Shown: one piece after another, positions 1-64,000 of the stretch
How positions within the stretch are numbered: position 1 is the stretch's first letter
Layout of the letters: each line of letters begins with the position of its first letter
Assembly (NCBI GenBank): GCA_036273715.1
Contig: DASUHB010000064.1
Coordinates: forward strand, 46,495-110,494
From: Gemmatimonadaceae bacterium
GTDB lineage: Bacteria > Gemmatimonadota > Gemmatimonadetes > Gemmatimonadales > Gemmatimonadaceae
Reading direction: 5' to 3'
Length of the DNA: 64,000 nt
The notes under the pieces: model-generated
Told to the model about the DNA's origin: nothing
Databases searched by the model: none
Seen by the model: only the letters and a program-made list of their open reading frames with translations
Position numbers and translations under genes: made by a program

Positions 1-160
1 CATGGCGAGCGTCGCGCTGCTCCGCGCCAACGCGCAGCCGAGCCGCGAGGACATTGCGCACGCGCTCGAGACGAACGTGTGCCGGTGCGGCACGTATCCG
101 CGGATCGTCGCCGCCGTTAGGCGGGCGGCCGCCTCCGGCGGTGGGGAGACGCCGCGATGA
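1..160 (+). CDS. (2Fe-2S)-binding small subunit of a molybdopterin dehydrogenase (CoxS/IorA-like), C-terminal fragment
   Basis: Frame 2 reads ...EDIAHALETNVCRCGTYPRIVAAV..., the NxCRCGTYxRI second Fe-S cluster motif of xanthine dehydrogenase/aldehyde oxidase small subunits. The TGA at 158-160 overlaps the ATG of the next gene (ATGA). Confidence 0.8.
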   Translation, partial: MASVALLRANAQPSREDIAHALETNVCRCGTYPRIVAAVRRAAASGGGETPR

Positions 161-2334
161 ACCCCGCCGATCGACCGGAAGGCGCCTCGCGCCGGGAGTT
201 TTTGAAGATGCTGGGTGGCGGACTGCTGGTGGTGCTCGTCTCGCGCGATGCCCTGGCGAGCCCGGCGCTCGGCGCGCGCCTAACGGAAGGACAAGCGCCC
301 GGCCGGCCGCAGATGCCGGAGAACGTGAGCGCGTGGCTGCACATCGATCAGAACGGCGACGTGACGGTGTTCACCGGGAAGGTCGAGTTCGGCCAGGGCA
401 TCCGCACGTCGCTGGCCCAGGAGGTCGCCGAAGAGCTGCGCGTGCCGATGGCGTCGATCCGGCTCGTGATGGGCGACACCCTGCTCACGCCGTTCGACAT
501 GGGCACGTTCGGCAGCCGCTCGACGCCCCAGATGGGCACCCAGCTCCGCAAGGTTGCCGCCACGGCGCGCGAGCGCCTCGTGGCCCTCGCCGCCGAGCGG
601 TGGCACGTCGATGCGGGCCGCCTAACGACAGCCGATGGGCGCGTCACCGATCCGCAGACGCACAAGTCCGCGCGCTACGGCGATCTCACCGCGGGCCGCA
701 CGATCACCGCCGACGTCAAGGAGGATGTCGCGCTCACTCCCGCGGCGCACTGGACGATCGCCGGCGCGTCGGCGCCGCGCGTCGGCGCCCGGGACCTCGT
801 CACCGGACGCCATCAGTACACGTCGGACATGCGCGTGCCGGACATGCTGTACGCCAAGATCCTTCGACCGGCGTCCATCGGTGCGACGTTGGCCTCGCTC
901 GATTCGAGTGCCGCGGAGTCGATGCCGGGCGTCGTGGTGACGCGGGATGGCGATTTCGTGGGCGTCACGGCGCCGTCGCCGGTGCTCGCGGCCAAAGCGT
1001 TAGGCGCGCTGCGCGCGGCCTGGACGCCGGCGCCGGGTCCGGCGCCGTCCTCGCGCGACATCGACGGCTATCTGCGCCGCACGCCGGCGCCGGAGGCCGG
1101 TCCGGGACACGAAGGCGGCTCCACGGAACCGTTCGAGCGCGGGAACGCGACCGGCGCGCTGGCGTCGGCGCGGCACCGCCTCACGCAGTCGTACACGGTC
1201 GCGTACATCGCGCACGTGCCGCTCGAGCCGCGCGCCGCGCTCGCGCAGGTCACGCATGAACGCGACGGCGACCGGCTGACGGTCTGGACGGGCACGCAAC
1301 GCCCGTTCGCCGTGCGCGACCAGGTGGCGCAGGCGGTCGGGATGCCTAACGATCGCGTTCGCGTCATCGTCCCCGATACGGGATCGGGCTACGGCGGCAA
1401 GCACACCGGTGAAGCGGCCGTCGAAGCCGCGCGGCTCGCCAAGCGGCTCGGCAAACCGGTCAAGCTCGTGTGGACGCGCGAAGAAGAATTCCGTTGGGCG
1501 TACTTCCGGCCGGCCGGCGTGATCGACGTCGATGCCGGCGTCGATGCGGACGGCACCATCACCGCCTGGACCTTCGACAACTACAACTCCGGTCCAGCGG
1601 CGATCCGTCCGCCGTATCCCATCGCCAATCAACGCGTCACGTTCCACCCGTCGGTGTCACCGCTGCGCCAGGGCTCGTATCGCGCCCTGGCAGCGACGGC
1701 CAATCATTTCGCGCGCGAGTCGCACGTCAGCGAGCTCGCCCACATGGTCGATATGGATCCGGTGGCATTTCGCCTCAAGAACATCGATGATCCGCGGCTC
1801 CGCGACGTCGTGCAGAAGGCCGCCGACAAGTTCGGTTGGCAGGGCACGAGTCGTCAGCCGGGACACGGCATCGGTGTGGCCTGCGGATTCGAGAAAGGCG
1901 GCTACGTGGCCACGTGCGCCGAAGTGTCGGTCGACCGCGGATCGGGCGACGTGCGGATCGTGCGCGCCGTGACGGCGTTCGATTGCGGCGCGATCGTGAA
2001 TCCGGATGGCCTGCGCAATCAGATTGCCGGCGCGCTCGTCCAGGGCGTGGGCGGTGCGCTGTTCGAGGCCATCGAGTTCGATCACGGAGTGATTCGCAAC
2101 GCGCACCTTGCCGACTACCGCGTGCCGCGGTTCAGCGATGCGCCGGCGATCGATGTCGTGCTGGTCGATCGCCCCGATGAACCATCGATGGGTGCGGGTG
2201 AGGCGCCGATCATGGCGCTCGCGCCGGCGGTGGCGGCGGCGATCTTCGAGGCGACCGGCGTCAGGCTGCGCAGCCTGCCCATGGCGCCGAGCGGCATCAA
2301 GCTGGCCGCTGCATCGGGCGCCGGCTCCAGTTAG
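157..2334 (+). CDS. Molybdopterin-binding large subunit of an aldehyde oxidase/xanthine dehydrogenase family enzyme (IorB-like), TAT-exported
   Basis: 725-aa ORF with a twin-arginine signal (SRREFLKMLGGGLLVVL). Carries family-typical segments (GQGIRTSLAQ, GSGYGGK, MGAGEAPI). Translationally coupled to the upstream Fe-S subunit. Confidence 0.85.
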   Translation: MNPADRPEGASRREFLKMLGGGLLVVLVSRDALASPALGARLTEGQAPGRPQMPENVSAWLHIDQNGDVTVFTGKVEFGQGIRTSLAQEVAEELRVPMASIRLVMGDTLLTPFDMGTFGSRSTPQMGTQLRKVAATARERLVALAAERWHVDAGRLTTADGRVTDPQTHKSARYGDLTAGRTITADVKEDVALTPAAHWTIAGASAPRVGARDLVTGRHQYTSDMRVPDMLYAKILRPASIGATLASLDSSAAESMPGVVVTRDGDFVGVTAPSPVLAAKALGALRAAWTPAPGPAPSSRDIDGYLRRTPAPEAGPGHEGGSTEPFERGNATGALASARHRLTQSYTVAYIAHVPLEPRAALAQVTHERDGDRLTVWTGTQRPFAVRDQVAQAVGMPNDRVRVIVPDTGSGYGGKHTGEAAVEAARLAKRLGKPVKLVWTREEEFRWAYFRPAGVIDVDAGVDADGTITAWTFDNYNSGPAAIRPPYPIANQRVTFHPSVSPLRQGSYRALAATANHFARESHVSELAHMVDMDPVAFRLKNIDDPRLRDVVQKAADKFGWQGTSRQPGHGIGVACGFEKGGYVATCAEVSVDRGSGDVRIVRAVTAFDCGAIVNPDGLRNQIAGALVQGVGGALFEAIEFDHGVIRNAHLADYRVPRFSDAPAIDVVLVDRPDEPSMGAGEAPIMALAPAVAAAIFEATGVRLRSLPMAPSGIKLAAASGAGSS

Positions 2335-2343
2335 GCGAAAGCC

Positions 2344-2808
2344 TTACGGCCGGCCCCCGGCGCTGTCCGGCCGGAAGCGGCGCCCGCGGCGGTGCTGCCG
2401 GAGCGATCGGAACTTGTCGCGCTGCTCCGGGGTCAGCACGCTGTCGATCTGGGCCCGGGTCGCGCCGATGAGCGCGCGAACCTGCGGGCTCGTCGCTTTG
2501 CGGATCGAGTCCAGCATCGCCATCCGGCGCATCATGATGGTATCGATGCGCGCCTCCTGATCCGGCGTCAGGCGCAGCTGGCGGGCGAGCCCGGCGAGCA
2601 TGTGCGCCCGGGCGCTGTCCGCGTTCGGCCTAACGGGGTTGCGCATCACCCCGAATGCCCCGAACGGAGGGCGGCGAGGCCGGAAGAAGGCACGGTCGAG
2701 GCCGATGCCGACGAGAATGCCGGCAATCAGCGTCACGGCCACGACGACCGCCGCCATTGCGCGCGGCGAGAAGGCGCCGTCGGGTCGATCCCCACGCGGA
2801 GCCGTCAT
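2344..2808 (-). CDS. Spy/CpxP/ZraP-like (LTXXQ) periplasmic stress protein, membrane anchored
   Basis: 154 aa from ATG 2808, which makes an ATGA overlap with the upstream stop. One N-terminal hydrophobic segment is followed by a helical domain with LTPDQ and LTPEQ motifs. The longer track ORF (to 3033) has an Arg/Gly-rich off-frame-like N-terminus that overlaps the neighbouring gene. Confidence 0.6.
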   Translation of the reverse strand: MTAPRGDRPDGAFSPRAMAAVVVAVTLIAGILVGIGLDRAFFRPRRPPFGAFGVMRNPVRPNADSARAHMLAGLARQLRLTPDQEARIDTIMMRRMAMLDSIRKATSPQVRALIGATRAQIDSVLTPEQRDKFRSLRQHRRGRRFRPDSAGGRP

Positions 2809-3194
2809 TGCGCGAGCACCTCGGCGGCGAACGATTCGGTGGTCGGTTGGCCGACGATGGAGACTGACACGTCCTGGTCGGGCGCGGCGCCGGTGACCGC
2901 CTCGATGAGCGTTGGCGCGGCCTCGCTCGATTCGGGCACCGACCGATCGTGCATGATGAGCGCGAACGCCGCGATCGCCGCCGCCACGGCCAGCGGCACT
3001 GCCGCCCGCGTCCAGCGTGCCGCGTGCTCCCACCAGCGCCGCGGCCGCGCCACCGCGCGGCTGCCTAACGCAGCGACGTGGATCCGGCGCGCCAGCGCGT
3101 CCCAGTCCACCTCGTCGTACGGCGGCTCGCCGGACACGCGCTCGAGCTGCGCCCTCAGCTCCGACTCGAGTCGGCCGTGCTGTTCGTCACTCAT
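2805..3194 (-). CDS. Putative anti-sigma factor (single-pass membrane protein)
   Basis: 129 aa; the start overlaps the sigma factor stop by 8 nt. Soluble N-terminus, one TM (AVPLAVAAAIAAFALI) and a short extracytoplasmic tail. No HxxxCxxC zinc motif, so the call rests on position and topology. Confidence 0.5.
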   Translation of the reverse strand: MSDEQHGRLESELRAQLERVSGEPPYDEVDWDALARRIHVAALGSRAVARPRRWWEHAARWTRAAVPLAVAAAIAAFALIMHDRSVPESSEAAPTLIEAVTGAAPDQDVSVSIVGQPTTESFAAEVLAQ

Positions 3195-3849
3195 CGTTCC
3201 GTTCTCCGCGCAGCGGCGCGAGCGCTTTTCGCAACGCGTGCCGCGCCATGTGGAGGTGCCAGCGCACCGTCCCTTGTGAAACGCCTAACATTGCCGCGAT
3301 CTCGACGCCCGACATGCCGTCGATGTCTGCCAACTCCACGATCAACCGCTGACGTTGCGACAATCCGCCCAACGCGGCCTGGAACCGCTCGCGGATTTCC
3401 GTGCGGTCGTACAGGCCGGCCGGCGATGGCTCGGCGGCCTCGAGCGTGTCCAGCGGCATCGCTTCCGTCCGTCGAATCGCTCGCGACTTCCGCGCATTGA
3501 GACCGCGATTCACGACGATGCGGAAGAACCACGGTCCGAACGGGCGCGACAGATCGAACGATGCGATCCGCTCGAGGGCCGTGAGAAACGCGTCCTGCAC
3601 CAGATCTTCGGCGTCCTCGCGATGGCCTAACACACGATAGGCGATCGCGAACGCCCGGCGCATGTAGCGCCGCACCACGAGATCGAACGCCGCCACATCG
3701 CCGCGCTGCACGCGCGCGAGCAGCGCCGCTTCTTCCGCGAACGCGCGCGCGCGCTCCGACGACTCGGGGACGCTCGATTCCACGACCGCGCTCACGCGGG
3801 TCGCAACGCCCCACACGGGCGCGGATTGGACATCCACCGGACACGACAC
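3187..3849 (-). CDS. ECF (sigma-70 family, group IV) RNA polymerase sigma factor
   Basis: Region 2 (EDAEDLVQDAFLTALE) and region 4 (MSGVEIAAMLGVSQGTVRWHLHMAR) signatures. The true start may lie downstream of the first ATG. Confidence 0.85.
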   Translation of the reverse strand: MSCPVDVQSAPVWGVATRVSAVVESSVPESSERARAFAEEAALLARVQRGDVAAFDLVVRRYMRRAFAIAYRVLGHREDAEDLVQDAFLTALERIASFDLSRPFGPWFFRIVVNRGLNARKSRAIRRTEAMPLDTLEAAEPSPAGLYDRTEIRERFQAALGGLSQRQRLIVELADIDGMSGVEIAAMLGVSQGTVRWHLHMARHALRKALAPLRGERNDE

Positions 3850-4487: not shown

Positions 4488-4654
4488 CGATCATCTCCGG
4501 CTCGAGGCATGCGAGCGACGCACGCGCGTCGCGGTGAGCATGCATCATACACCGACCGTGCGCGAGTCGTTGGATTCTTTGCGCCGTTGACACCCCTCGG
4601 GGGCGGGGTTATGCTGCGCGCCGGCGCACGGCGCAAGCGTGCCGCGCCGCCATG

Positions 4655-4830
4655 CAGCTCGGTAGGCGAGGTTCCCGCGTCACACACAGGCCACTGCCCG
4701 GCGGTCTCGAGAGAGGCTTCGACCGTGGTAGAGCAGGCACTCCCGAGCAAGGGTTTGCCTAACGTGGCTGGGATTCCAGATGGAATCTCTCACGGGACGC
4801 GGTGCCAAAGCTCAAACGAGTGAGAGCACG
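4655..4830 (+). promoter_or_regulatory. M-box (ykoK leader) Mg2+-sensing riboswitch upstream of mgtA
   Basis: GGUAGGCGAGGUUCCCG...CACUGCCCGG...GGUGCCAAAGCUCAAACGAGUGAGAG parallels the B. subtilis ykoK leader blocks GUUAGGUGAGGCUCCUG...GCUGCCC...GUGCUAAAGCUCUACGA. It sits about 70 nt upstream of a MgtA-type ATPase. An imperfect hairpin follows at 4830-4852 without a U-tract. Confidence 0.75.
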
Positions 4831-4901
4831 GGCTTCCCGACCTCGGGAGCCCGGCTGGCGCCGATCGGCCCCTTCGCTCACTCCCGGGCGATGGGGCCGT
4901 T

Positions 4902-7661
4902 GTGTCGGAACGGGAGGACGCGATCGCGATGCCGATGACGTCGCTGCGCCCGGGGGCGCGCGGGACACAGTGGACGGACCAGGCGCTCGAGCTCCTGCGC
5001 CTGCGCCCGGGCGGCCGCACGCCCAACGACCCCGGCGCCGGCGCGGGCGACCCGCGGGCGCAGGCGCTGTTCGTCTATGCGGGCGCAGACTGGACGGCCG
5101 CGCTCGAGCGCCTGGCCACCACCCGCCACGGCCTAACGACGGCCGCGGCTGATCAGCGCCGCGACGAGATCGGCCTCAACGAAATCGCGCACGAACGGGC
5201 GCCCGCGTGGTACATGCAGCTCGTCCACGCGTTCATCAATCCGTTCATCGGCGTGCTCGCCGTGTTGGGCGTCGTGTCGTACGCCACCGGAGACGTAAAA
5301 GCCGTGATCGTCATCTCGGTGATGGTCACGATCAGCGCGCTGCTGCGATTCGTCCAGGAGTTCCGGTCGAACCGCGCCGCGCTCGCGCTCAAAGCGATGG
5401 TGCGCACCGGCGCCACGGTCGAGCGCACCGACGAGCCATCCGAGGACGACCCGTCGCCGCGGCCGCGTCGCCGCGAAGTGCCGATCGAGGAGCTGGTGCC
5501 CGGCGACGTGATCGCGCTCTCAGCCGGCGACATGGTGCCTGCCGATGTGCGGTTCCTCTCGGCGAAAGACCTGTTCGTTAGTCAATCGGCTCTGACGGGC
5601 GAAGCGGTGCCGGTCGAGAAGGGCGACGCGCCGGTCGACGTCGCCTCCGGCCGCGTCACGTTAGGCGAGCTGCGCAACATCGGCTTCCTCGGCACGTCGG
5701 TGGTCAGCGGCACCGCCGCCGCCGTCGTCGTGGCGACCGGCGATCGGACCTACTTCGGCGCCATGGCCCGCAGCCTCATCGGCCGCCGCCCCGTCACGTC
5801 GTTCGACATCGGCGTCAACAAGGTGAGCTGGCTGCTCATCCGGTTCATGCTGGTCATGGTGCCGATCGTCTTCGTGATCAACGGCGTCTCCAAAGGCGAC
5901 TGGCTGGAGGCGTTTCTGTTCGGCGTCGCGGTGGCCGTCGGCCTAACGCCGGAAATGCTGCCGATGATCGTCACCGCGAACCTCGCCAAGGGCGCGGTGG
6001 TCATGGCGCGCCACAAGACCATCGTCAAGCGCCTCAACGCCATTCAGAATTTCGGCGCGATGGATGTGCTGTGCACCGACAAGACGGGCACGCTCACGCA
6101 GGATCGCATCATTCTCGAGCGACACTTGAACGTCGTCGGCGAGGACGACGAGTCGGTGCTCGCCCTCGCCTACCTCAACAGCACGTATCAGACGGGCCTG
6201 CGCAGCCTGCTCGACCGCGCCGTGCTCGAGCACAAGGATCTGAGCGACGAACTGCGCGTCGAACGGGATTTCCGCAAAGTCGACGAGATTCCGTGGGACT
6301 TCGCGCGGAAGCGCATGTCGGTGGTGCTCGAGGAAAAGCAGACCGCGCACGTGCTCATCTGCAAGGGGGCCGCCGAAGAGATCCTCGCCGTCTGCTCGCA
6401 GGTCCGCGATGAAGACGTCGTCACGCCGCTCACCGACGACGCCGCGGAAAGCGCGATCGATCTCGCGCGCGAGCTGAATGAAGATGGATTGCGGGTCGTC
6501 GCCGTGGCCTATCGCGAATTCCCCGCGCAGGATCGCGCCTACACCGTTGGCGACGAGTCGTCGCTCATCCTCGCCGGCTTCATCGGCTTCCTCGACCCGC
6601 CCAAGGAAACCGCCGGGCCGGCGCTCACCGCGCTCCGCGACCATGGCGTCACCGTCAAGATCCTCACCGGCGACAACGACGTCATCGCGCGCAAGGTGTG
6701 CCACGACGTCGGCCTCGAGCCCGGCGACATTGCGTTAGGCGCGGACCTCGAAGCGCTGTCCGACGACGAGCTGGGCGACCTCGCCGCGCGCACGACGATC
6801 TTCGCCAAGCTCACGCCCACGCAGAAAACGCGCATCGTCGGCGCCCTGCGCACCCGCGGCCACACGGTGGGTTTCCTGGGCGACGGCATCAACGATGCCG
6901 GCGCACTGCGCGAGGCCGATGTCGGCATTTCCGTCGACTCGGCCGTCGACATCGCCAAGGAATACGCCGACATCATCCTGCTCGAGAAGAGCTTGATGGT
7001 GCTCGAAGAAGGCGTCATCGAAGGACGCAAGACGTTCGGCAACATCATGAAGTACATCAAAATGACGGCGAGCTCGAACTTCGGGAACGTGTTCAGCGTC
7101 CTCATTGCCAGCGCGTTCCTGCCGTTCCTGCCGATGCTGCCGATTCAGCTGCTCATCCAGAATCTGCTGTATGACATCTCGCAGATTTCGATTCCGTTCG
7201 ACGACATGGATGCCGACTACCTCGCGCGGCCGCGAATCTGGAAGGCCGACGACATCGGCCGATTCATGGTCTGCATCGGGCCGATCAGCTCCATCTTTGA
7301 CGTCGCGACGTTCCTCCTCATGTGGTATGTGTACAAGGCGAACGCCGTGCCGCATCAGGCGCTGTTCCAATCGGCGTGGTTCGTCGAAGGCCTGCTCTCG
7401 CAAACGCTGATCGTCCACATGATCCGCACCGCCAAAGTCCCATTCCTCAAGAGCCGTGCGGCGTGGCCGGTGCTCGCGCTCACGGCCACGATCATGGTGA
7501 TCGGCATCGCGCTTCCGTTCATCACGTTAGGCGAACGCGTCGGCCTCGAGCCGCTTCCCGGCAGCTACTTCCTGTGGCTGCTCGGCATTCTGTTGTCGTA
7601 CGGGTTGCTCACCCAGGTCGTGAAGACCTGGTACATCCGCCGCTTTCACGCCTGGCTGTAG
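4902..7661 (+). CDS. mgtA: Magnesium-translocating P-type ATPase
   Basis: Carries CTDKTGTLTQ, TGDN, GDGINDAGALREADVGISV, and the MgtA-typical AVGLTPEMLPMIVT. Length is close to the roughly 900 aa of MgtA. Preceded by the M-box. The start is GTG 4902 or ATG 4929. Confidence 0.92.
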   Translation: MSEREDAIAMPMTSLRPGARGTQWTDQALELLRLRPGGRTPNDPGAGAGDPRAQALFVYAGADWTAALERLATTRHGLTTAAADQRRDEIGLNEIAHERAPAWYMQLVHAFINPFIGVLAVLGVVSYATGDVKAVIVISVMVTISALLRFVQEFRSNRAALALKAMVRTGATVERTDEPSEDDPSPRPRRREVPIEELVPGDVIALSAGDMVPADVRFLSAKDLFVSQSALTGEAVPVEKGDAPVDVASGRVTLGELRNIGFLGTSVVSGTAAAVVVATGDRTYFGAMARSLIGRRPVTSFDIGVNKVSWLLIRFMLVMVPIVFVINGVSKGDWLEAFLFGVAVAVGLTPEMLPMIVTANLAKGAVVMARHKTIVKRLNAIQNFGAMDVLCTDKTGTLTQDRIILERHLNVVGEDDESVLALAYLNSTYQTGLRSLLDRAVLEHKDLSDELRVERDFRKVDEIPWDFARKRMSVVLEEKQTAHVLICKGAAEEILAVCSQVRDEDVVTPLTDDAAESAIDLARELNEDGLRVVAVAYREFPAQDRAYTVGDESSLILAGFIGFLDPPKETAGPALTALRDHGVTVKILTGDNDVIARKVCHDVGLEPGDIALGADLEALSDDELGDLAARTTIFAKLTPTQKTRIVGALRTRGHTVGFLGDGINDAGALREADVGISVDSAVDIAKEYADIILLEKSLMVLEEGVIEGRKTFGNIMKYIKMTASSNFGNVFSVLIASAFLPFLPMLPIQLLIQNLLYDISQISIPFDDMDADYLARPRIWKADDIGRFMVCIGPISSIFDVATFLLMWYVYKANAVPHQALFQSAWFVEGLLSQTLIVHMIRTAKVPFLKSRAAWPVLALTATIMVIGIALPFITLGERVGLEPLPGSYFLWLLGILLSYGLLTQVVKTWYIRRFHAWL

Positions 7662-7665: not shown

Positions 7666-8718
7666 ATGCGATTCGCCTCCATGATCCACGCCGTCGACGC
7701 ACACGCGTGCGGCGAGCCCGGTCGGGTGATCGTCGGCGGCGTGCTCGACGTGCCAGGCGCATCGATGTTCGAGAAGATGTGCCATCTGCGCGACCATGCC
7801 GACGCACTCAGGCTGCGCATGCTGCGCGAGCCGCGCGGCTATCCGGCCGCCAATTGCAATGTCATTCTTCCGCCGACGCATCCCGAGGCCGATGCGGGCT
7901 TCGTGATCATGGAGCAGGTCGAGTATCCCGGCATGTCGGGCACCAACACGATCTGCGTCACCACCGTCCTGCTCGAAACCGGCATGCTTGCGATGCGCGA
8001 GCCGGTGACCGAACTGACCCTCGAGACGCCCGCGGGTCTCGTACGCGTGCGCGCCGATTGTGCTAACGGCAAGGTGCAGCGAGTCACGTTCCGGAACGTG
8101 CCGTCGTTCGCCGTGCACCTCGATGCGCCGGTCGAAGTGCCGCACCTGGGCACGGTGCCGGTGGACGTCGCGTACGGCGGGATGTTCTACGTGATCGCCG
8201 ATGCCGGCCGCTTCGGCCTCCGCCTAACGCCGGACGAGGGGCGCGACATCGTGCGCCTGGGCGAGATGATCAAGGCGGCGGCCCGCGAGCAGTTGCCCGT
8301 GTCGCATCCCGAGCAGCCGGGCTTCAGCGGCATCACCATCGCCCAACTGTCCGGCGCGCCATCGTCGCCGAGTGCGCACGCGCGCAATGCGGTGGTGGTG
8401 TCGACGGGCACGCTGGACTGGAACCGGCCGGCCACCTGGACCGGCGCGATCGACCGCTCACCGTGCGGCACGGGCACCTGCGCGAAGATGGCGACGCTGC
8501 ACGCCCGCGGCCTGCTGCCGCTGGAGCGAGATTTCCAGCACGAGGGCGTGTTAGGCACCGTGTTCACCGGGCGCCTCGTGGCCGAGACGATGGTGGGAGC
8601 CTATCGGGCCGTCGTGCCGACGCTCAGCGGGCAGGCCTGGATCACCGGGTTCAGCTCGTACGTCGTCGACCCGACCGACCCGTTTCAGGAGGGCTTTACC
8701 GTCGGCGATATCTGGTGA
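7666..8718 (+). CDS. Proline racemase/4-hydroxyproline epimerase superfamily protein with a Ser/Cys catalytic pair (specificity unknown)
   Basis: Contains VDAHACGEPGRV and IDRSPCGTGTCAKMATL family motifs. The first catalytic position reads PGMSGTNT (Ser, not Cys). Starts 5 nt after the mgtA stop. Confidence 0.8.
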   Translation: MRFASMIHAVDAHACGEPGRVIVGGVLDVPGASMFEKMCHLRDHADALRLRMLREPRGYPAANCNVILPPTHPEADAGFVIMEQVEYPGMSGTNTICVTTVLLETGMLAMREPVTELTLETPAGLVRVRADCANGKVQRVTFRNVPSFAVHLDAPVEVPHLGTVPVDVAYGGMFYVIADAGRFGLRLTPDEGRDIVRLGEMIKAAAREQLPVSHPEQPGFSGITIAQLSGAPSSPSAHARNAVVVSTGTLDWNRPATWTGAIDRSPCGTGTCAKMATLHARGLLPLERDFQHEGVLGTVFTGRLVAETMVGAYRAVVPTLSGQAWITGFSSYVVDPTDPFQEGFTVGDIW

Positions 8719-8726
8719 CCCGTGCG

Positions 8727-22833: not shown

Positions 22834-22839
22834 CTTACG

Positions 22840-55705: not shown

Positions 55706-55724
55706 GCCAGGACGCCGGCGGCCA

Positions 55725-57137
55725 TCACTGCGCGTAGCGGAGTACGTCGTACAGGTACCGGATGCCGGCGCGGACGTTGGCCGTCGAGATCCGCTCGTCG
55801 TTGCCGTGGACGCCCCGCTGGGCATCGCTGCTCTCCACCTGGAACGGGTCGAAGCCGTAGGTCACGATGCCTAACGCTCGATAGTACGGGCGATCGGTGG
55901 CGCCCGTGAGCATCGGGGTGGTCACGATGGCGCCGGGCACGCGGTCGCGCGCGGCACGCTCGATTGCCCGGAACAGATCGGTGTCGATCGGGCTTTCGAG
56001 CGGCGCGTTCACCGGCGCGAAGGGCGTCCAGTGCACGGCCGTGTCGTTCACCACGGCCTGGAGCCGCGCCAACACGGCAGCCGGATCGGCGTCGGGCAAC
56101 AATCGGATGTCGAGCTCCGCGGTCGCTTCGGATGGGATGACGTTCGTCTTGTTCGATGCCGAGAGGACGGTCTCGGAAATCGTGTTTCGCAGGATCGCAT
56201 TCCAGTAGATGTTGCTCGTGATCCATGCGCGCGCGCGCGGATCGCGTAGGGCGGTGCGCACGTCGGAGAGCCACGCACGCTCTTCGCCGGAGTACGTCGG
56301 GGCGATGTCGTGCAGGAATTTTGCGACGCCCGGTGTGACGTGCAGCGGTGTCTCGTAGTGCGCGAGCTTGTCGAGCGCCGCCACAAGGCGCGGCACCGGG
56401 TTGTTCTTCGTTGGGCGCGATCCGTGCGAGGCGATCCCGTGCACGGTGAGATGCTGCCAGAACGTCCGCTTCTCCGAGACGCTGACGCCGACGTACTCGA
56501 GCGTGCCGTCGTGGACGAGGTTGTCGCCGCCCTCGGTGAGCAGGTACTCGATGCCATGGAGCAGATTCGCGTGCCGCGATGCGAAGATGCGCGCGCCGCT
56601 GCTGCCGAGCTCTTCGTCGGAATTACCGATGAACACGATGTCGCGCGTACGATGGATTCCGGAGCGTTCGAGGGCGATCATCGCCATGAGCTGCACGATG
56701 CCCTCGCTCTTCATGTCTAACGCGCCGCGACCGTAGATGTAGCCGTCCTTGATGACGCCGCCGAACGGATCGACGCTCCAGAATTTGGGCGTCGCCGGCA
56801 CCACGTCCATGTGGTGCACCAGCGCGATGCCTTTCTTGGCGCCGTCGCCCGTGAGGCGCACGTACAGGTTTCCCCGCGACGGACCGAGCGCCGTCGATTC
56901 TGTGTCGAGCACTTGCACCGTGAACCCTTCGCGCTCGAGGACGGGTATCAGGAACTTGATGGCCGCCATCTCGTTGCCCGGCGGGTTTGTCGTGTTGACG
57001 CGGATGTAGTCGGCGAGCAGCTGCACCGCCGTGTCGCCCAACGCGTTCCAGTCGAGCGCGGCCGATCGTTGGGCATGAGCCGCGGTCACCGGCGCCGCGA
57101 GCATGGCGAGCGTCGCCGCTAGAGCAGAGAATCGCAT
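55725..57137 (-). CDS. M20/M28-type secreted metallopeptidase
   Basis: From ATG 57137: signal peptide MRFSALAATLAMLAAPVTAAHA, then HHMDVVPA, GRGALDMKS and NSDEELGS, which are typical of the M20 family. Confidence 0.8.
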   Translation of the reverse strand: MRFSALAATLAMLAAPVTAAHAQRSAALDWNALGDTAVQLLADYIRVNTTNPPGNEMAAIKFLIPVLEREGFTVQVLDTESTALGPSRGNLYVRLTGDGAKKGIALVHHMDVVPATPKFWSVDPFGGVIKDGYIYGRGALDMKSEGIVQLMAMIALERSGIHRTRDIVFIGNSDEELGSSGARIFASRHANLLHGIEYLLTEGGDNLVHDGTLEYVGVSVSEKRTFWQHLTVHGIASHGSRPTKNNPVPRLVAALDKLAHYETPLHVTPGVAKFLHDIAPTYSGEERAWLSDVRTALRDPRARAWITSNIYWNAILRNTISETVLSASNKTNVIPSEATAELDIRLLPDADPAAVLARLQAVVNDTAVHWTPFAPVNAPLESPIDTDLFRAIERAARDRVPGAIVTTPMLTGATDRPYYRALGIVTYGFDPFQVESSDAQRGVHGNDERISTANVRAGIRYLYDVLRYAQ

Positions 57138-57243
57138 GGCAGGAATCGGCGATCGTGCGCATGAAATCGCAATGGGGCCGGCCGACGAAACCGGACTGCG
57201 CAGGCGCTCGTACGGCGCACACGACACCCACGTGACCGGCGGC

Positions 57244-59535
57244 ATGATGCTTTGGCTTGGAGTTGTGTTCGCATTGCAGGCTCACGCTGCGCGAGACACC
57301 GCGCAGACGTCGACGCGCGCCGACACTCCTCTGGTCGCGACGCCGGCGCAAATCGCCAACGCGTACGAGGATTCGAGCGCGCGCACGCTCGTGGCTCGTG
57401 CGCGGGCGGCGCGCGTCAGCCAGGATTCGTCGCTCAAAGCATACGACGCGACGGCAAAGCGCCGCTTCACCGTCAACTTCGGGCTGGGTGCGCACGGTCC
57501 CGAGCGGCTCCTCATCCGCAGCGAAGGTGCATCGCGCGTGCGTTGGACGCGCGGCGTTGGTGCGCACATCGACATTCTCGCGGCGCGCACGGCGATCCCG
57601 CTCGCGTATCCGGGTGCGCGCGTGCTGTCGGAGATGTTGGATGACAATCCGGTGCCGTATTTCCCGGGTCGCGAGGGCCTGGTTGGCTTCTCGGAAGTGG
57701 TGCGATCGCGCCAGCGGCACGACTCGCCGATGATTCATCCGCTCGAGGACGGCGCGGAGTCGATGTATCGATTCGCGACCGGCGACTCGGTGTCGCTGGC
57801 GTTTCCGGACGGCCGGCGGATTCGGCTACGCGAGATTCGGGTGATTCCGCGCTCGCCGCGGTACGACTTGATCGTCGGCTCGCTGTGGATCGATGAATCA
57901 TCCGGGCAGCTCGTGCGCGCCGTGTACCGCCCCGCGGCGGACATGGACATCGCCGACATGGCCCGTCGCGACGACCCGCACTCGTTCGACGACGTTCCAG
58001 CGTTAGTCAAGCCGTTGATCTTCCCGATGAGCGCGACGATCTCCGCGTTCATCGTCGAGTACGGCCTGGTGGACGAGCGCTGGTGGATGCCGCGCGTACA
58101 GACCATCGAGGGTCGCGCGCGCATGGGCCCGACGCACGCGACGTTCTCGGTCGAACAGAATTTCCGGTACGCGAGTGTGAACGTGGCGGATTCGCTGCCG
58201 CCGATCGCGATGGCCGCGGTGACGGATTCGGCGCGTGAAGCGCGGCGTGATTCGATCCGCACGGCTCGTCGCCGCGACCGCCGGCACGGCGACGACGACG
58301 AGGATCCGGACATGCAGTCGATCAGATGCCCGCGCGCCGACACGCTCGTGCGATATCAGATGCGCCACGACGGCGCGCTGCCGATCGAGATCCGGATTCC
58401 GTGCGACACGGCGGCGTTGGCGCATTCGCCGGAGCTGCCGCCGTCGATCTTCGACTCGGGCGCGGAGACCTTCGGCGTTCCGGACCGCGATGCGGTGCTC
58501 AAGTCGCTTGGGTTAGGCGTGCAGCCGGGCTGGAGTCCGGGTGCGCCGTCTCTGCACTACGGCCTCGAGGATGGGCTGACCCGTTACAACCGGGTGGAAG
58601 GGTTGTCGCTCGGCGCGCGCCTGGACGAGCAGTTCGGCGCCGGGCTGTCGGGAAGCGTCACCGGCCGCATCGGCGTCGCGGATCTGCAGCCGGGGTTCGA
58701 CGCGCAGGTGCAGCGGTCGGACGGCGTACGAACGTTATCGTTAGGCACCTACCGGAGATTGGTGCCGGCGAGTCCGTGGGGCGACCCGTTCTCGCTTGGC
58801 AGCTCGATCGGGGCGCTGATGCTGGGCAACGACGATGCATTCTATTATCGGGCGTGGGGTGTGGAGCTCGGCGGCCGGCGTGACGGACGAGCCACCATCC
58901 AGTGGCGCGCGTTCGCCGAGGACCAACGGAATGCCGACGTCAACACGCCGTTTTCGCTGTATCATGCGTTAGGCGCGCGCGATGGCGCGCCGCCCAACAT
59001 TCGCGCCGCGCGCGCCGGCGAGGCCGGCGGCGTGGTGTCGGCGCACGAAGACTTCGGACTCGACCCGGCCGGCTGGCGCGTCGGCCTCGGCGCCTCGCTC
59101 GAGGGAGCGGGCGGCACGTTCGATTACGGGCGCGGATCGCTCGACGCATCGGTGTCGCGCGGCATCTGGTCCGGGCTCAGCGCATCGCTGGGCGCGAGTG
59201 CGGGCACGAGCGTCGGGACCGTCGCCCCGCAACGTCTGTGGTACCTCGGCGGCGCGCAGACCGTGCGCGGCCAGATCATGGGTGCGGAGGCGGGCGACGC
59301 GTACTGGTTCGGCCGCGCGGAGCTCGGGTACGGGCTCCTGGCTCTTCGCCCAACGGTGTTCTTCGACATCGGCTGGGCGGGGTCTCGGAGCGAGTGGTGG
59401 TCGCCCGGCCGGCCGATCAGCGGCGCGGGCGTCGGGTTGTCGTTACTGGACGGTTTGCTACATGTGGATGTCGCGCACGGCATCCAGCCGTCGAGGTCCT
59501 GGCGGGGCGCGCTGTATTTGGAGACCCGCCCGTAA
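57244..59535 (+). CDS. Outer-membrane protein with a C-terminal Omp85/surface-antigen-type beta-barrel
   Basis: The C-terminal region ([39 protein letters not shown]) resembles the bacterial surface antigen (D15) barrel. The N-terminal roughly 500 aa are unassigned. The start (57244) is uncertain. Confidence 0.6.
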
Positions 59536-60281: not shown

Positions 60282-61538
60282 ATGCCAGACGCACTCTCGA
60301 CTACGACGCCGTCACACGCCCACGAGCAGACCAACGCCGAGGTGCTGTTGTGGCAGGGCAAGGTTCGCGCGGGATTCGCGGCCTTGGCCGGCGCAGTCGG
60401 GCTGATCCTGCACCTCACGGCGACCGTCACGCGGTCGCCGCGCGTTGGGCTGTTGACGTTGCTCAGCTATCTGGTGGTCAACTTGTGGCTGAGCCGCAGC
60501 GCCCGCCGGCGCGGCGCGGCGCGCGATTGGATGGTGGCGGTGACGATGGCGTCCGACGTGTTGTTCATGCTGGCCATCGCGTACCTGTTGATCCCGCCGC
60601 AGCATTACGACCGCGTGTTGTTAGGCGGTTTCGCGATTCTGCACCTCACCGAATTCTATTTCGGACGGCGGCTGTCCTGGATGGTCTTGGGCGGCCTCGT
60701 GGCCGGGTACCTCGGCCTGGTGTCGAACGCGATCGCGAACGGCGCCGTGCTGTCCTGGACGTCCGAGTTAGGCACGGCGGCGGTGTTCACGGTGGCGGCC
60801 GCGACGTTCATCGTCCACTACAGCAATTTCAACTGGCGGCTCAACGAGATCGTCTCGCTGTTCGATCGGGCGGAAGGCGGCGACTTCTCCGGCGAGTACG
60901 ACGCCGCGGCCGACAAGCGGCCGGACAGCGTGACGCTGGTGGGCCGCGCGTACAACCGCGTGCGCCCGCAGCTCGCGAATCTCGTGATGACCGACGCCTT
61001 GAGCGGATGCCAGAACCGGCGCGGGTTGGAGCAGCAGCTGGCGCGCGAAGTGTCGCGGGCAGCGCGGACCGGGCGCGAGCTGGCGCTGATTGCGATCGAC
61101 GTCGATCACTTCAAGACCATCAACGACACCTTCGGGCATTTGGCAGGCGACGCCGTGATCCAGGAAGTGGGCGAGCTCTTGCGGTCGGTGGCGCGCACGG
61201 GCGACGTGGTGGCCCGCACCGGGGGCGACGAGTTCATGCTGCTTTTGCCGGAGACGAACGCCGCCGGCGCATTCCGCCTGGCGACGCGCACACGGGAAGA
61301 AGTCTCGAAGCGCCGTTTCCAGGGGATTTCGGGCAAGGTCCCGGTGACGGTGAGCATCGGACTCGTGGCCGACCGCGTGACGGACGAGAACGTGGTGCAC
61401 GATCTGCATTCGCGCGCCGACGAGGCGTTGTACGCGGCGAAAGACGGCGGACGCAACCGCGTGAGCATCTGGACGCCGAACTTGCGCGCGATCGCGGTGC
61501 AGCGGGCCGGGCAGGCGCTCATGCGCACCGGCACGTAG
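60282..61538 (+). CDS. Membrane-bound diguanylate cyclase (GGDEF domain)
   Basis: About 5 N-terminal TMs, then DALSGCQNRRG, IDVDHFKTINDTFGHLAGD and RTGGDEFMLLL (the GGDEF active site). Confidence 0.85.
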   Translation: MPDALSTTTPSHAHEQTNAEVLLWQGKVRAGFAALAGAVGLILHLTATVTRSPRVGLLTLLSYLVVNLWLSRSARRRGAARDWMVAVTMASDVLFMLAIAYLLIPPQHYDRVLLGGFAILHLTEFYFGRRLSWMVLGGLVAGYLGLVSNAIANGAVLSWTSELGTAAVFTVAAATFIVHYSNFNWRLNEIVSLFDRAEGGDFSGEYDAAADKRPDSVTLVGRAYNRVRPQLANLVMTDALSGCQNRRGLEQQLAREVSRAARTGRELALIAIDVDHFKTINDTFGHLAGDAVIQEVGELLRSVARTGDVVARTGGDEFMLLLPETNAAGAFRLATRTREEVSKRRFQGISGKVPVTVSIGLVADRVTDENVVHDLHSRADEALYAAKDGGRNRVSIWTPNLRAIAVQRAGQALMRTGT

Positions 61539-61614: not shown

Positions 61615-61616
61615 CA

Positions 61617-61986: not shown

Positions 61987-64000
61987 ATGAGCGAGCGGCG
62001 CGTTAGGCGGCTGCTGCGGCTGTCGGAGGGCCGCGATCGCGTGGGCGCGGAGATGGACGAAGAGGTGGCGTTCCATCTGCAGCAGCGCGTGGAGCAGCTC
62101 GTGGCGCGCGGCCTGTCGCCGGAGGATGCGCGGGCCGAAGCGCTCGCGCGATTCGGACCCATCGAGCTGGCGACGCAGCGGCTCCGCGAGTCCGCCGTGC
62201 AGCGCGAGCGGCGCCGCGAAGGGCGCGAACGCGCCGGCATGCTCCGGCGAGACCTCGCATACAGCATTCGCTCGCTGCGCCGCAGCCCGGTGTTTGCCGC
62301 GGCGGCGATCGTGACTCTTGCGTTGGGCATCGGCGCCAACAGCGCCGTGGCGGGGTTGATCCGCGCGGTGCTGCTCCGGACGCCGCCCTACACGGCGCCC
62401 TCGCGGCTGGTGATGGTGTGGGAGCGCTTGCCGGCGTTAGGCGGAAGCGGCGACCGGTTGGGCGCGTCGCTGCCGGAATTCGTGGACTATCGAGACCGGA
62501 ACCGGGTCTTCTCGGCGATGGCGGGCTTCGAGAACAATGAGCTCGACCTGACTGGCGACGGGCCGCCCGAGCGTCTCGCCGCGGCGGAAGTGACCAGCAA
62601 TCTCTTTGCGACGCTTGGCGTCCGGCCGGTCCTCGGCCGGGATTTCACCGCGGCGGACGGGCAGGAAGGTGCCGGCAAGGTCGCGATCCTGAGCTACCCG
62701 TTGTGGCAGAGTCGCTTCGGCGGCGATGCATCCGTCGTTGGGCGCGTGGTTCGTTTGAACGAGGAATCGTTCACGGTGGTTGGCGTGATGCCGCGCGGGT
62801 TCGAGTTTCCGTGGCCGGGCATGCCGCTCTCCGACAAGGCGGACCTCTGGACGCCTCTCGTGTTCACGCGCGCCGCGCTCGCCGCTCGCGCGGAGAGCTA
62901 CGATGTGCGGATGGTCGCGCGCCTCGCGCCGGGTGTGACGCTCGACCATGCCCGCGCCGACCTCACGAGAATCGTCGACGGGTTCCGCGAGGAGTATCCG
63001 CAGATTTACGCCGGGAACGTGCAGACGCAGACCATGGTCGACGGACTGGTGGCGGACGCGCGGGCGGATGCGCGCCCGCTGCTGCTGGCGCTCGCCGGCG
63101 CGGTGGTGGTGGTGCTGCTCATCGCCTGCGCCAACGCGGCGCATCTGCTGCTGGCGCGCGCCGTGTCGCGGCGGCCGGAAGTGGCGCTGCGGCGCGCGTT
63201 AGGCGCGGGCGCCGGCCACGTGGTCGGGCAGGCGCTGATCGAGGCGCTGGTGCTGGCCGCGGTCGGCGCGGGTGTAGGGATCGGGCTGGCCGCGGCGCTG
63301 GTGGGCATCATCAGGCGATTCGGACCGGACAACATCGCGGGACTGGCACAGGCGCGCATCGATGGACACGTACTGGCGTTCACCGCGGTGCTGGCGTTAG
63401 TCACAGCGCTCGTGTGCGGCGTCGTGCCGGCGCTCCGCTCGGCGAAGAGCGATGCGGGCGAGACGCTCAGATCGGGGCGACGTGATGTGGGGGGCGGACG
63501 CGGGCGGCAGAAGCTGCGAAGCGCGCTCGTGGTGTTCGAGGCGGCGAGCGCGATGGTGCTGGTGGTGAGCGCGAGCCTGCTCGTGCGCAGTTTGATTCAC
63601 GTGCTCGAGGTGCCGCCCGGATTCGATCCGGACGGCGTGGTCGTGGCGCGGACCACATTCGACTATCATCGCTACGCGAGCGACGACAAGCGTCGGACCG
63701 CCGAGCGAACGATCCTCGAGCGACTGCGTGCGCTGCCCGGCGCGCAGGCGGTTGGCTTGACGACGCATCTCCCGATTGCGGACGAGCGCGAGATCGGGTT
63801 CACGGTGGACGGCCGCGATCCGAACGAGTTTCACTGGGCTGCCAACGCGCTCGTCGGCGACGACTATTTCCGCGTGATGCGGATTCCGTTGTTGCGCGGC
63901 CGCACGTTCGGCGCGGCCGACGTCCCGAGCGCGCCCTGGTCGGCGGTGATCAACGAGAGCATGGCGCGGCACTACTGGCCTAACGGAGACGCGGTGGGCC
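61987..64000 (+). CDS. ADOP-type duplicated FtsX-like permease, 5' partial (runs off the window)
   Basis: ATG 61987. The N-terminal permease prefix domain (EMDEEVAFHLQQRVEQLVARGLSPEDARAEALARFG) is followed by LRRSPVFAAAAIVTLALGIGANSAV. The frame stays open to position 64000, which is why it is absent from the closed-ORF track. Confidence 0.8.
   Translation, partial: MSERRVRRLLRLSEGRDRVGAEMDEEVAFHLQQRVEQLVARGLSPEDARAEALARFGPIELATQRLRESAVQRERRREGRERAGMLRRDLAYSIRSLRRSPVFAAAAIVTLALGIGANSAVAGLIRAVLLRTPPYTAPSRLVMVWERLPALGGSGDRLGASLPEFVDYRDRNRVFSAMAGFENNELDLTGDGPPERLAAAEVTSNLFATLGVRPVLGRDFTAADGQEGAGKVAILSYPLWQSRFGGDASVVGRVVRLNEESFTVVGVMPRGFEFPWPGMPLSDKADLWTPLVFTRAALAARAESYDVRMVARLAPGVTLDHARADLTRIVDGFREEYPQIYAGNVQTQTMVDGLVADARADARPLLLALAGAVVVVLLIACANAAHLLLARAVSRRPEVALRRALGAGAGHVVGQALIEALVLAAVGAGVGIGLAAALVGIIRRFGPDNIAGLAQARIDGHVLAFTAVLALVTALVCGVVPALRSAKSDAGETLRSGRRDVGGGRGRQKLRSALVVFEAASAMVLVVSASLLVRSLIHVLEVPPGFDPDGVVVARTTFDYHRYASDDKRRTAERTILERLRALPGAQAVGLTTHLPIADEREIGFTVDGRDPNEFHWAANALVGDDYFRVMRIPLLRGRTFGAADVPSAPWSAVINESMARHYWPNGDAVG

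Follow-up and report, generated by a model that had tools for sequence, protein, structure and literature searches.

A hyper-abundant GTTAGGC heptamer restricted to one subclade of the Gemmatimonadaceae: distribution, upkeep and a possible role as an uptake-type self tag

Hyper-abundant exact words are rare in bacterial genomes. The textbook cases are the uptake signal sequences (USS) of Pasteurellaceae, the DNA uptake sequences (DUS) of Neisseriaceae and the highly iterated palindrome HIP1 of cyanobacteria, all of which have served as routes into the recognition of self versus foreign DNA and into molecular drive across thousands of genes. USS copies are evenly spaced, one word per fragment being sufficient (PMC1939737), and their accumulation alters the encoded proteins (PMC2817400). 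Published DUS and USS are also in excess in non-coding DNA and are accompanied by enriched one-mismatch forms, and HIP1 is now linked experimentally to transformation. Here we describe a further word, the heptamer GTTAGGC (reverse complement GCCTAAC), in a 64,000-nucleotide stretch of an uncultured Gemmatimonadaceae bacterium (assembly GCA_036273715.1, contig DASUHB010000064.1, positions 46,495 to 110,494), hereafter the window. A preceding sequence-only reading had detected the word and named DUS/USS, HIP1 and Chi/KOPS (FtsK-orienting polar sequences) as its nearest precedents. That choice was sound, but the reading overlooked that the heptamer equals the consensus core of integron attC/attI sites. 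A full-text literature search for the heptamer returned only an integron paper and a primer, and literature searches on uptake sequences and competence in Gemmatimonadota/Gemmatimonadetes returned nothing relevant. Thus, no published description of GTTAGGC as a hyper-abundant word was found in the searchable literature, and the phylum is new for such words.

Direct counting on the + strand gave 63 GTTAGGC and 41 GCCTAAC, 104 exact copies in all. The recount bore out both the number and the coordinates reported from the sequence alone, except for one start given as 47194 that lies at 47195. With a GC content of 67.9%, mononucleotide composition predicted 7.0 copies, and the observed/expected ratio of 14.8, close to the 15-fold first estimated, was the highest among all 7-mers of the window. 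This figure alone is not decisive, because ordinary codon-driven words reach ratios near 12 (ATCGATG, 39 copies, 11.8). Markov models of order 1 and order 2 predicted 2.1 and 2.4 copies, respectively; orders 4-5 'predict' the observed count only because the word constitutes its own sub-words. The stricter null was a synonymous codon shuffle performed gene by gene, which preserved the protein sequences and the inflated number of TTA codons. It yielded 10.8±2.1 copies (11 of the copies in a shuffled window being non-coding or stop-codon copies that the shuffle leaves untouched), with a maximum of 20 in 1000 shuffles. The observed number exceeded the Markov and codon-shuffle expectations 10- to 50-fold, and these data confirm that the abundance of GTTAGGC is real and far above composition and codon nulls.

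The word was sharply defined at its core. ATTAGGC, CTTAGGC and TTTAGGC each occurred 0 times in the window, in agreement with the earlier remark that G precedes every TTAGGC, and a codon-pair effect, under which NTTAGGC would be equally common for any N, did not apply. The claim that all one-mismatch neighbours together number about 15 was mistaken: they total 134, mainly GTTGGGC (41), GTTCGGC (39) and GTGAGGC (11), and only those that retain the TTA core are scarce, being almost absent. Among the flanks, C at position -1 was present in 62% of copies; this was considered as a flank requirement and rejected as mostly an NCG-codon effect. At position +7 (for example 123 and 1006), T was found in 0 of 104 window copies and 7 of 354 distinct clade copies (2%), against 13% at the equivalent sites of the sister clade described below. 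The depletion of T is genuine, and the recognised motif may extend to GTTAGGCV. Overall, the flanks contribute little to the word.

Gene calls based on codon statistics placed 48 genes on 92% of the window, and 98 of the 104 copies lay inside, or at the ends of, conserved coding sequences. By these calls, 56 copies encoded Leu-Gly (xxG TTA GGC), 5 Val-Arg and, in antisense orientation, 16 Leu-Thr and 16 Pro-Asn, while five formed stop codons (3 TAG, 2 TAA) and six were non-coding. The five stop codons had been recognised before; the dipeptide counts are slight revisions, and the non-coding copies had been put at three. The 20 window proteins scanned belonged to unrelated Pfam families, and no competence gene was noted among them. 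To relate the copies to the room available for them, a codable site was defined as a position whose amino acids allow synonymous encoding of GTTAGGC. The word occupied 56/157 X-Leu-Gly, 16/44 X-Leu-Thr and 16/27 X-Pro-Asn sites (36-59%), and 5/49 Val-Arg-X sites, and it contained 56 of the window's 70 TTA codons. The sense orientation offered 206 codable positions and the antisense orientation 71, and the antisense classes were at least equally saturated. The 2:1 excess of sense copies, previously taken as a transcription-sense bias, therefore reflects the larger number of sense codable positions and not a preference. The effect is at the level of DNA, independent of frame and orientation. A protein-motif or codon-pair effect was rejected on the codon shuffle, the occupancy of codable sites and the sister-clade orthologues, all of which agree with the initial proposal that selection or a bias acts on the DNA word itself. 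The AT-richer intergenic islands indeed lack the word, as had been pointed out, but together they span about 1.8 kb, in which about 3 copies are expected, and the absence is not significant.

The phylogenetic distribution of the word was assessed at 26 loci from species-representative genomes, about 23 kb per relative, retrieved with the AcrB-like protein encoded at 40267-43431. Nine Gemmatimonadaceae genomes in which this orthologue was at least 86% identical, here called the word clade, carried 1.0-1.9 copies per kb at the syntenic locus. In syntenic genomes with an orthologue at most 81% identical (72-76% DNA identity), the sister clade, 1 copy was found in 86 kb, and more distant Gemmatimonadales and other genomes had 2 copies in 184 kb. 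Overall, the word clade reached a density of 1.66 per kb and the sister clade one of 0.012 per kb, a difference of about 140-fold. GTTAGGC is a lineage-specific word of one Gemmatimonadaceae subclade, with an abrupt phylogenetic onset. An alternative 'dialect' word for the sister clade, CGAGAATCTC, was considered and rejected; it reached only about 0.3 per kb, was also present in the word clade and looked codon-driven. A plasmid search with the AcrB-like protein gave no Gemmatimonadota among the matches listed, and the exact protein had no entry in the assembly index.

The word also occurred in a cultured organism. Megaplasmids of the type strain Gemmatirosa kalamazoonensis KBS708 (ATCC BAA-2150; PacBio-finished) carried it: plasmid 1, sampled over 350 kb, had 272 copies (0.78 per kb; orientation 142:130), and the initial 50 kb of plasmid 2 had 0.5 copies per kb. 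A known 53-kb tandem duplication makes up the first 105 kb of plasmid 1 and left the density unchanged. Within the word lay 113 of 123 Gemmatirosa TTA codons, and on plasmid 1 (1-350000) it supplied 28/41 TAA and 14/58 TAG stops; many genes there end Ala-TAA (GCC TAA C). Density was higher in intergenic (1.17 per kb) than in coding DNA (0.63 per kb). The use of stop codons and the non-coding excess in Gemmatirosa indicate that the process fills weakly constrained positions. Class usage varied by lineage, Leu-Thr sites being occupied at 4% on plasmid 1 and at 36-50% in the window clade. Apart from the tandem duplication, no insertion-sequence-like repeats, sought as foreign DNA, were found in the 350 kb of plasmid 1.

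Metagenomes were scanned with a pattern of three words at set distances, which returned low-GC repeats without relevance here, integron cassette arrays and about 45 high-GC contigs with isolated in-gene copies. Among the 19 high-GC contigs with good coding coverage, 17 had 0.8-2.2 copies per kb outside the seed. In these 19, class occupancy was like that given above, at 30% for Leu-Gly, 50% for Leu-Thr, 47% for Pro-Asn and 7% for Val-Arg, and TTA was almost confined to GTTAGGC. The word is thus not confined to the contig on which it was first noticed, being present in nine other genomes, about 19 well-covered metagenome contigs and a PacBio-finished cultured strain, and an assembly artefact was rejected on these many independent assemblies. 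The cassette arrays (L033, L079, L096 and L135; also L034, L036, L047, L130 and L145) represent a known and unrelated use of the heptamer, in which attC opens with GCCTAAC and closes with GTTAGGC, forward and reverse counts are equal, and the pairs lie about 50-120 bp apart. Two scans of viral contigs for word-bearing phages of these hosts gave no high-GC match, the three-word pattern being of low sensitivity and the result uninformative. A virus-like contig of 42% GC (L062 1-14153; the same element in L158 1-7504) contained 34 isolated copies in 14 kb, where about 1.3 are expected. They lay inside and outside open reading frames with unrelated flanks, next to genes for a pentapeptide/DUF5758 protein, an RNA ligase, NeuB, a DegT aminotransferase and a radical-SAM protein; the genome is unrelated to those above, with the same word enriched.

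The origin of individual sites was followed in an alignment of the efflux operon from 15 genomes. Many copies were identical across all nine word-clade genomes aligned at the position, where the sister clade had GCTCGGC or GCTGGGC. From these alignments, the sites arise by point substitution along the path CTG/CTC to TTG to TTA. Consistent with this path, the six-of-seven intermediate GTTGGGC showed a 9-fold enrichment in the word clade over the sister clade (0.72 and 0.08 per kb, respectively), and precursor words were depleted in the word clade. GTTGGGC also alternated with GTTAGGC at orthologous sites between species (window, L002-L024), and could be a weak functional form, a stepping stone or a decay product.

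Acquisition of the word was not always silent. Of 29 window copies aligned to sister genomes, 9 were synonymous in all, and roughly one third showed an amino-acid change tied to the word, including three Pro-Ala to Pro-Asn replacements as well as Ile to Leu, Lys to Arg and Ala to Gly. The Pro-Asn dipeptide was 1.67 times commoner in the word clade. Conservation of the copies reached 69-83% between species that share 80-84% DNA identity, compared with 25-34% of all 7-mers, and at 95% DNA identity the figures were 37/38 copies and 74%. Inspection of orthologous sites, suggested at the outset, thus found the word conserved in relatives, with amino-acid differences from the sister clade at about one third of the sites. 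By this comparison the sites are actively maintained. The MacB/FtsX-type duplicated permease gene at 44134-46614 was present in the window and in L001, L003, L018 and L024; L002, L009 and L017 lack it at the corresponding syntenic place. Its normal word density (4 copies) suggests that it was lost in some lineages rather than recently gained.

Spacing was compared with a null in which the same number of copies per class was drawn from the codable sites (5000 draws). Gaps below 100 bp numbered 1 in the window, against 13.1±2.9 expected, and gaps below 200 bp numbered 5, against 24.0±3.5, a value as low being reached in 0 of 5000 draws. The deficit of short gaps was replicated in eight relatives and in Gemmatirosa (6 vs. 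21.8±4.1), with a mode of 300-500 bp. Spacing was over-dispersed and not periodic (coefficient of variation 0.63-0.83; gaps up to 2.8 kb), no two copies in the window were closer than 87 bp, and the orientation of adjacent copies was random.

The G-rich form was on the G-rich strand in 72 of the 104 window copies (72:32, 69%; class-stratified Mantel-Haenszel odds ratio 2.2, p = 0.007). This preference was not significant in independent contigs (odds ratio 1.15), and the Gemmatirosa plasmid was balanced. The bias in the window could follow from asymmetric cytosine deamination, GCCTAAC having three C and GTTAGGC one. Both GC skew and its third-codon-position counterpart (GC3 skew) switched sign near 30-33 kb, from negative on the left to +0.1 to +0.2 on the right, in genes of both strands, and the orientation ratio of the word flipped with GC3 skew near 30 kb. 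No DnaA box (TTATCCACA, at most 1 mismatch) was present in the whole window, including the skew switch. This switch may mark an origin or terminus of replication, or the breakpoint of an inversion. Genes left of the switch were not co-oriented with the inferred leading strand. Taken together, strand polarity of the word appears weak, and its orientation is explained by coding capacity.

All copies are collected in Table 1. The copy at 4757 lies in an M-box (magnesium) riboswitch (4651-4831, 98 bits) 5' of the P-type ATPase gene at 4902-7661. It had been counted as an instance of the word, and it is one, but it coincides largely with the conserved CCUAA of the riboswitch consensus, and that copy is therefore largely dictated by the RNA.

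Table 1. Positions (window coordinates) of the 104 exact copies of the heptamer. Strand + denotes GTTAGGC and strand - denotes GCCTAAC on the + strand. Classes follow our own gene calls: Leu-Gly, xxG TTA GGC; Val-Arg, GTT AGG Cxx; Leu-Thr, xGC CTA ACx; Pro-Asn, xxG CCT AAC.
Position	Strand	Class	Coding sequence	Remark
116-122	+	non-coding		
278-284	-	Leu-Thr	157-2334(+)	
620-626	-	Leu-Thr	157-2334(+)	
999-1005	+	Leu-Gly	157-2334(+)	
1344-1350	-	Pro-Asn	157-2334(+)	
2330-2336	+	TAG stop	157-2334(+)	
2628-2634	-	Val-Arg	2344-2808(-)	
3063-3069	-	Leu-Gly	2805-3194(-)	
3283-3289	-	Leu-Gly	3187-3849(-)	
3625-3631	-	Leu-Gly	3187-3849(-)	
4757-4763	-	M-box riboswitch		over conserved CCUAA of family consensus
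5131-5137	-	Leu-Thr	4902-7661(+)	
5660-5666	+	Leu-Gly	4902-7661(+)	
5941-5947	-	Leu-Thr	4902-7661(+)	
6734-6740	+	Leu-Gly	4902-7661(+)	
7526-7532	+	Leu-Gly	4902-7661(+)	
8222-8228	-	Leu-Thr	7666-8718(+)	
8550-8556	+	Leu-Gly	7666-8718(+)	
8726-8732	+	TAA stop	8727-10532(-)	
9432-9438	-	Leu-Gly	8727-10532(-)	
9667-9673	+	Leu-Thr	8727-10532(-)	
10452-10458	+	Pro-Asn	8727-10532(-)	
10822-10828	-	Leu-Gly	10555-12492(-)	
11845-11851	-	Leu-Gly	10555-12492(-)	
13677-13683	+	Leu-Gly	13075-14217(+)	
14109-14115	+	Leu-Gly	13075-14217(+)	
14521-14527	-	Leu-Thr	14214-15482(+)	
15016-15022	-	Leu-Thr	14214-15482(+)	
15487-15493	+	Leu-Gly	15479-16210(+)	
16273-16279	+	Val-Arg	16207-17256(+)	
16784-16790	-	Leu-Thr	16207-17256(+)	
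17495-17501	-	non-coding		
18809-18815	-	non-coding		
18938-18944	-	non-coding		
19680-19686	-	Pro-Asn	18976-21042(+)	
20357-20363	-	Leu-Thr	18976-21042(+)	
22419-22425	+	Leu-Gly	21352-22833(+)	
22839-22845	+	TAA stop	22840-24102(-)	
23125-23131	-	Leu-Gly	22840-24102(-)	
23842-23848	+	Pro-Asn	22840-24102(-)	
24696-24702	-	Leu-Gly	24099-25058(-)	
24819-24825	-	Leu-Gly	24099-25058(-)	
25847-25853	+	Pro-Asn	25055-26329(-)	
27376-27382	-	Pro-Asn	26645-28033(+)	
27463-27469	-	Pro-Asn	26645-28033(+)	
28319-28325	+	Leu-Gly	28140-29762(+)	
28682-28688	+	Leu-Gly	28140-29762(+)	
28994-29000	+	Leu-Gly	28140-29762(+)	
29309-29315	+	Leu-Gly	28140-29762(+)	
31090-31096	+	Leu-Gly	30680-32320(+)	
31438-31444	+	Leu-Gly	30680-32320(+)	
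31900-31906	+	Leu-Gly	30680-32320(+)	
32667-32673	+	Leu-Thr	32441-32872(-)	
33391-33397	+	Pro-Asn	33106-33681(-)	
34525-34531	+	Leu-Thr	33678-35669(-)	
35088-35094	+	Pro-Asn	33678-35669(-)	
37555-37561	+	Leu-Gly	37490-39118(+)	
38034-38040	-	Leu-Thr	37490-39118(+)	
38341-38347	+	Leu-Gly	37490-39118(+)	kept in 9/9 word-clade genomes aligned there
38977-38983	-	Pro-Asn	37490-39118(+)	
39091-39097	-	Pro-Asn	37490-39118(+)	
39394-39400	+	Val-Arg	39115-40251(+)	sister clade Val-Lys (GTGAAGC)
40098-40104	+	Leu-Gly	39115-40251(+)	
40247-40253	+	TAG stop	39115-40251(+)	
41034-41040	+	Leu-Gly	40267-43431(+), AcrB-like	sister clade CTG/CTC-GGN
41436-41442	+	Leu-Gly	40267-43431(+)	
42186-42192	+	Leu-Gly	40267-43431(+)	sister clade Ile-Gly
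42441-42447	+	Leu-Gly	40267-43431(+)	
42645-42651	+	Leu-Gly	40267-43431(+)	
42876-42882	+	Leu-Gly	40267-43431(+)	
43672-43678	+	Leu-Gly	43451-44158(+)	
43923-43929	-	Leu-Thr	43451-44158(+)	
44295-44301	+	Leu-Gly	44134-46614(+)	
44614-44620	+	Val-Arg	44134-46614(+)	
45147-45153	+	Leu-Gly	44134-46614(+)	
45948-45954	+	Leu-Gly	44134-46614(+)	
46700-46706	-	Leu-Gly	46637-47746(-)	sister clade Leu-Ala
47195-47201	-	Leu-Gly	46637-47746(-)	
48880-48886	+	non-coding		
49808-49814	+	Leu-Gly	49641-51086(+)	
50066-50072	+	Leu-Gly	49641-51086(+)	
50267-50273	-	Pro-Asn	49641-51086(+)	sister clade Pro-Ala
50579-50585	+	Leu-Gly	49641-51086(+)	
51238-51244	+	Leu-Gly	51083-51997(+)	
51634-51640	+	Leu-Gly	51083-51997(+)	
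52089-52095	-	Pro-Asn	51994-52962(+)	sister clade Pro-Ala
52941-52947	+	Leu-Gly	51994-52962(+)	
53432-53438	-	Pro-Asn	52959-54158(+)	sister clade Pro-Ala
53837-53843	+	Leu-Gly	52959-54158(+)	
54002-54008	+	Leu-Gly	52959-54158(+)	
54385-54391	-	Pro-Asn	54143-55705(+)	
54705-54711	-	Leu-Thr	54143-55705(+)	
55134-55140	-	Leu-Thr	54143-55705(+)	
55701-55707	+	TAG stop	54143-55705(+)	
55869-55875	-	Leu-Gly	55725-57104(-)	
58512-58518	+	Leu-Gly	57103-59535(+)	
58740-58746	+	Leu-Gly	57103-59535(+)	
58968-58974	+	Leu-Gly	57103-59535(+)	
60620-60626	+	Leu-Gly	60282-61538(+)	
60767-60773	+	Leu-Gly	60282-61538(+)	
62002-62008	+	Val-Arg	61987-63999(+)	
62436-62442	+	Leu-Gly	61987-63999(+)	
63198-63204	+	Leu-Gly	61987-63999(+)	
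63978-63984	-	Pro-Asn	61987-63999(+)	

Because the sequence-level signatures match those published for USS and DUS, and HIP1 is tied to transformation, we tentatively favour by analogy the reading that GTTAGGC is a self tag of the USS/DUS kind, kept by biased DNA uptake and recombination, and give it a probability of about 0.45. Under this model, the DNA-binding part of a DNA-acquisition pathway, most likely a surface receptor of natural transformation, would read double-stranded GTTAGGC in either orientation, and fragments bearing the word would be taken up and recombined more often. Mutations that create or improve the word would be over-transmitted and those that destroy it replaced, the net result being a molecular drive equivalent to biased gene conversion. 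The word would then gradually fill weakly constrained positions, namely synonymous sites, tolerant residues, stop codons and spacers. A further copy on a short fragment that already has one would bring no gain, and accumulation would halt once copies stand roughly every few hundred bases. We infer both that the word is read by a component of uptake or transformation and that these bacteria are naturally transformable.

Several points weigh against an uptake tag. The literature search returned no uptake, transformation or competence data for any Gemmatimonadota. The word has 7 bp and the known USS/DUS cores 9-12 bp, and it uses the least preferred codons, unlike USS; in Pasteurellaceae the choice of USS frame correlates with preferred codons. 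The window shows a modest G-rich-strand preference that has no counterpart in classic USS. The sister clade lacks a word of its own, so no DUS-like pattern of dialects is seen. Carriage on megaplasmids is compatible with uptake but not specifically predicted by it. Finally, the same sequence signatures would result if a very large population were under weak selection for a site bound inside the cell.

A doubtful but serious alternative is that the word is read inside the cell by a clade-specific, non-m6A (N6-methyladenine) system, such as a nuclease, recombinase or conversion machine, that would take GTTAGGC every few hundred bases as a sign of 'self' or would convert near-matches into it. If true, this would be a new class of genome-wide self-marking in primary sequence, one that overrides codon usage, changes amino acids and replaces stop codons. 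Three rivals seem improbable. The word could be a Chi-like signal at which a helicase-nuclease (RecBCD/AddAB-like or a defence nuclease) switches from degradation to repair, so that selection would leave no break more than a few hundred bases away from a copy. The strong conservation of sites, the presence of the word on megaplasmids and chromosomal contigs, as any resident DNA would need, and the preference in the window for the G-rich, putatively leading, strand would all fit such a signal. That polarity was not replicated, however, and may be explained by strand-asymmetric deamination; a Chi-like signal also has no reason to avoid copies less than 200 bp apart, and known Chi sites are mildly over-represented and on common codons, whereas enrichment here is 15- to 140-fold and on the rarest codons. 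Marginally less probable again is an architectural role, in which a chromosome-organising protein (nucleoid-associated, condensin-loading or similar) would bind the copies as an array and weak selection in very large soil populations would hold them at regular intervals. Even spacing, with its mode and its deficit of short gaps, the use of either orientation, the presence on all large replicons sampled and the conservation of sites are in its favour, and the same idea was earlier proposed for HIP1 and for USS spacing. To our knowledge, though, no nucleoid protein needs an exact 7-mer at thousands of sites to the point of forcing the rarest codons and amino-acid changes; the spacing is not periodic, and the switch from none to everything between clades at about 75% DNA identity would require a newly gained essential architecture. 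On a par with it stands a ratchet of repair or gene conversion, for example a 5-methylcytosine (m5C) methyltransferase acting on GCCTAAC, with mismatches in near-cognate sites resolved towards the word by a nicking enzyme of the Vsr or MutH type, as in Elhai's model for HIP1 and similar to very-short-patch repair in E. coli. Such a ratchet would act on every resident replicon and accounts for the exact-word specificity, the excess of six-of-seven variants and the spread of sites by substitution without insertions or deletions. In the published single-molecule real-time (SMRT) methylome of KBS708, only RGATCY, ATGCAC and CCAGN7TCA were reported, and no m6A motif matches GTTAGGC, so the word is not an m6A site there; SMRT sequencing does not reliably detect m5C, which leaves room for a cytosine methyltransferase. 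Against the ratchet, GCTSGGC turns into the word only through two GC-to-AT changes, each at a position of its own, and these would run counter to Vsr-type repair, which drives T:G to C:G; nor would a repair bias yield mutual avoidance of copies within 200 bp.

Two further explanations are far less credible. In integrons, the core sites GTTRRRY and RYYYAAC include the letters of GTTAGGC (PMC12901181), and copies could in principle be recombination sites, the consensus R'/R'' cores of attC/attI or secondary integrase sites; the metagenome scan with the word did retrieve genuine cassette arrays with GCCTAAC...GTTAGGC pairs. In the window, the copies are single and never GCCTAAC-N(50-120)-GTTAGGC, with neighbour orientation random; they lie in frame within conserved housekeeping-type genes, having come from substitution at orthologous positions, and the other GTTRRRY variants GTTAGAC, GTTAAGC and GTTAGGT are not enriched. 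We also know of no way in which an integrase would create its own site by point mutation. The integron reading was rejected for this locus on its unpaired, in-frame, substitution-born and non-degenerate copies, and we consider it very improbable. Still closer to negligible is an artefact of composition, codon pairs, protein motifs or contig assembly. Although codon-driven words approach the mononucleotide ratio of GTTAGGC, the codon-shuffle null falls far short of 104 copies, the proteins concerned are from unrelated families, the word is missing from sister genomes that share GC content, codon usage and the orthologous proteins, and independent assemblies, including a finished one, contain it.

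GTTAGGC would be the first such word in Gemmatimonadota, a phylum abundant in soil and poorly cultured. Synteny persists across its onset, which should allow the acquisition of the reader to be traced by comparative genomics, and because the drive opposes codon bias, its strength is measurable. The cultured, finished and methylome-typed carrier KBS708 makes uptake, binding and recoding experiments feasible. The word is a sharp taxonomic marker for binning and, if it is an uptake tag, could help to make these bacteria genetically tractable.

Among known systems, Chi (RecBCD/AddAB) and KOPS or SpoIIIE recognition sequences (SRS; FtsK/SpoIIIE) resemble GTTAGGC as short, asymmetric, G-rich words, with a modest G-rich-strand excess in the window. 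Enrichment of GTTAGGC is one to two orders of magnitude stronger, it uses rare codons and avoids neighbouring copies, and its polarity is weak and not replicated. KOPS-type polarity exceeds 85%, and a KOPS/SRS-like role was rejected, since the window reached no more than 72:32 and the Gemmatirosa plasmid stood at 142:130. With integron attC/attI, the heptamer shares every letter of the canonical core and inverse core, and differs in having no attC stem, cassette structure or degeneracy. The bias of very-short-patch repair in E. coli (CCWGG excess, CTAG deficit) illustrates that repair or conversion can shift the abundance of a specific word; its effects are few-fold and in the direction AT to GC, whereas here the changes are GC to AT at two positions and the excess over relatives is about 140-fold. 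HIP1 (GCGATCGC) is closer, as a hyper-abundant exact word that spreads by substitution, is conserved at orthologous sites in coding and non-coding DNA and has quasi-regular spacing, and whose function, long unknown, is now linked to transformation. HIP1 is palindromic, contains sites of two methyltransferases and is phylum-wide, whereas GTTAGGC is asymmetric (it differs from its reverse complement), has no counterpart among the three m6A motifs of the Gemmatirosa methylome and occurs within one subclade of one family. Compared with USS (9-bp core AAGTGCGGT) and DUS (10-12 bp, with dialects), GTTAGGC has a different sequence with only 7 strongly specified bases and weak flanks, the rarest codons, a higher density in the window (1.6 per kb), a host phylum without known competence and no dialect in the sister clade. 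It resembles them as an exact, short, non-palindromic and clade-restricted word at about 1 per kb, present in both orientations with apparently little or no replication polarity and spaced more evenly than chance, which has accumulated by point substitution within genes in several frames, with inflation of the encoded peptides and enrichment of one-mismatch forms.

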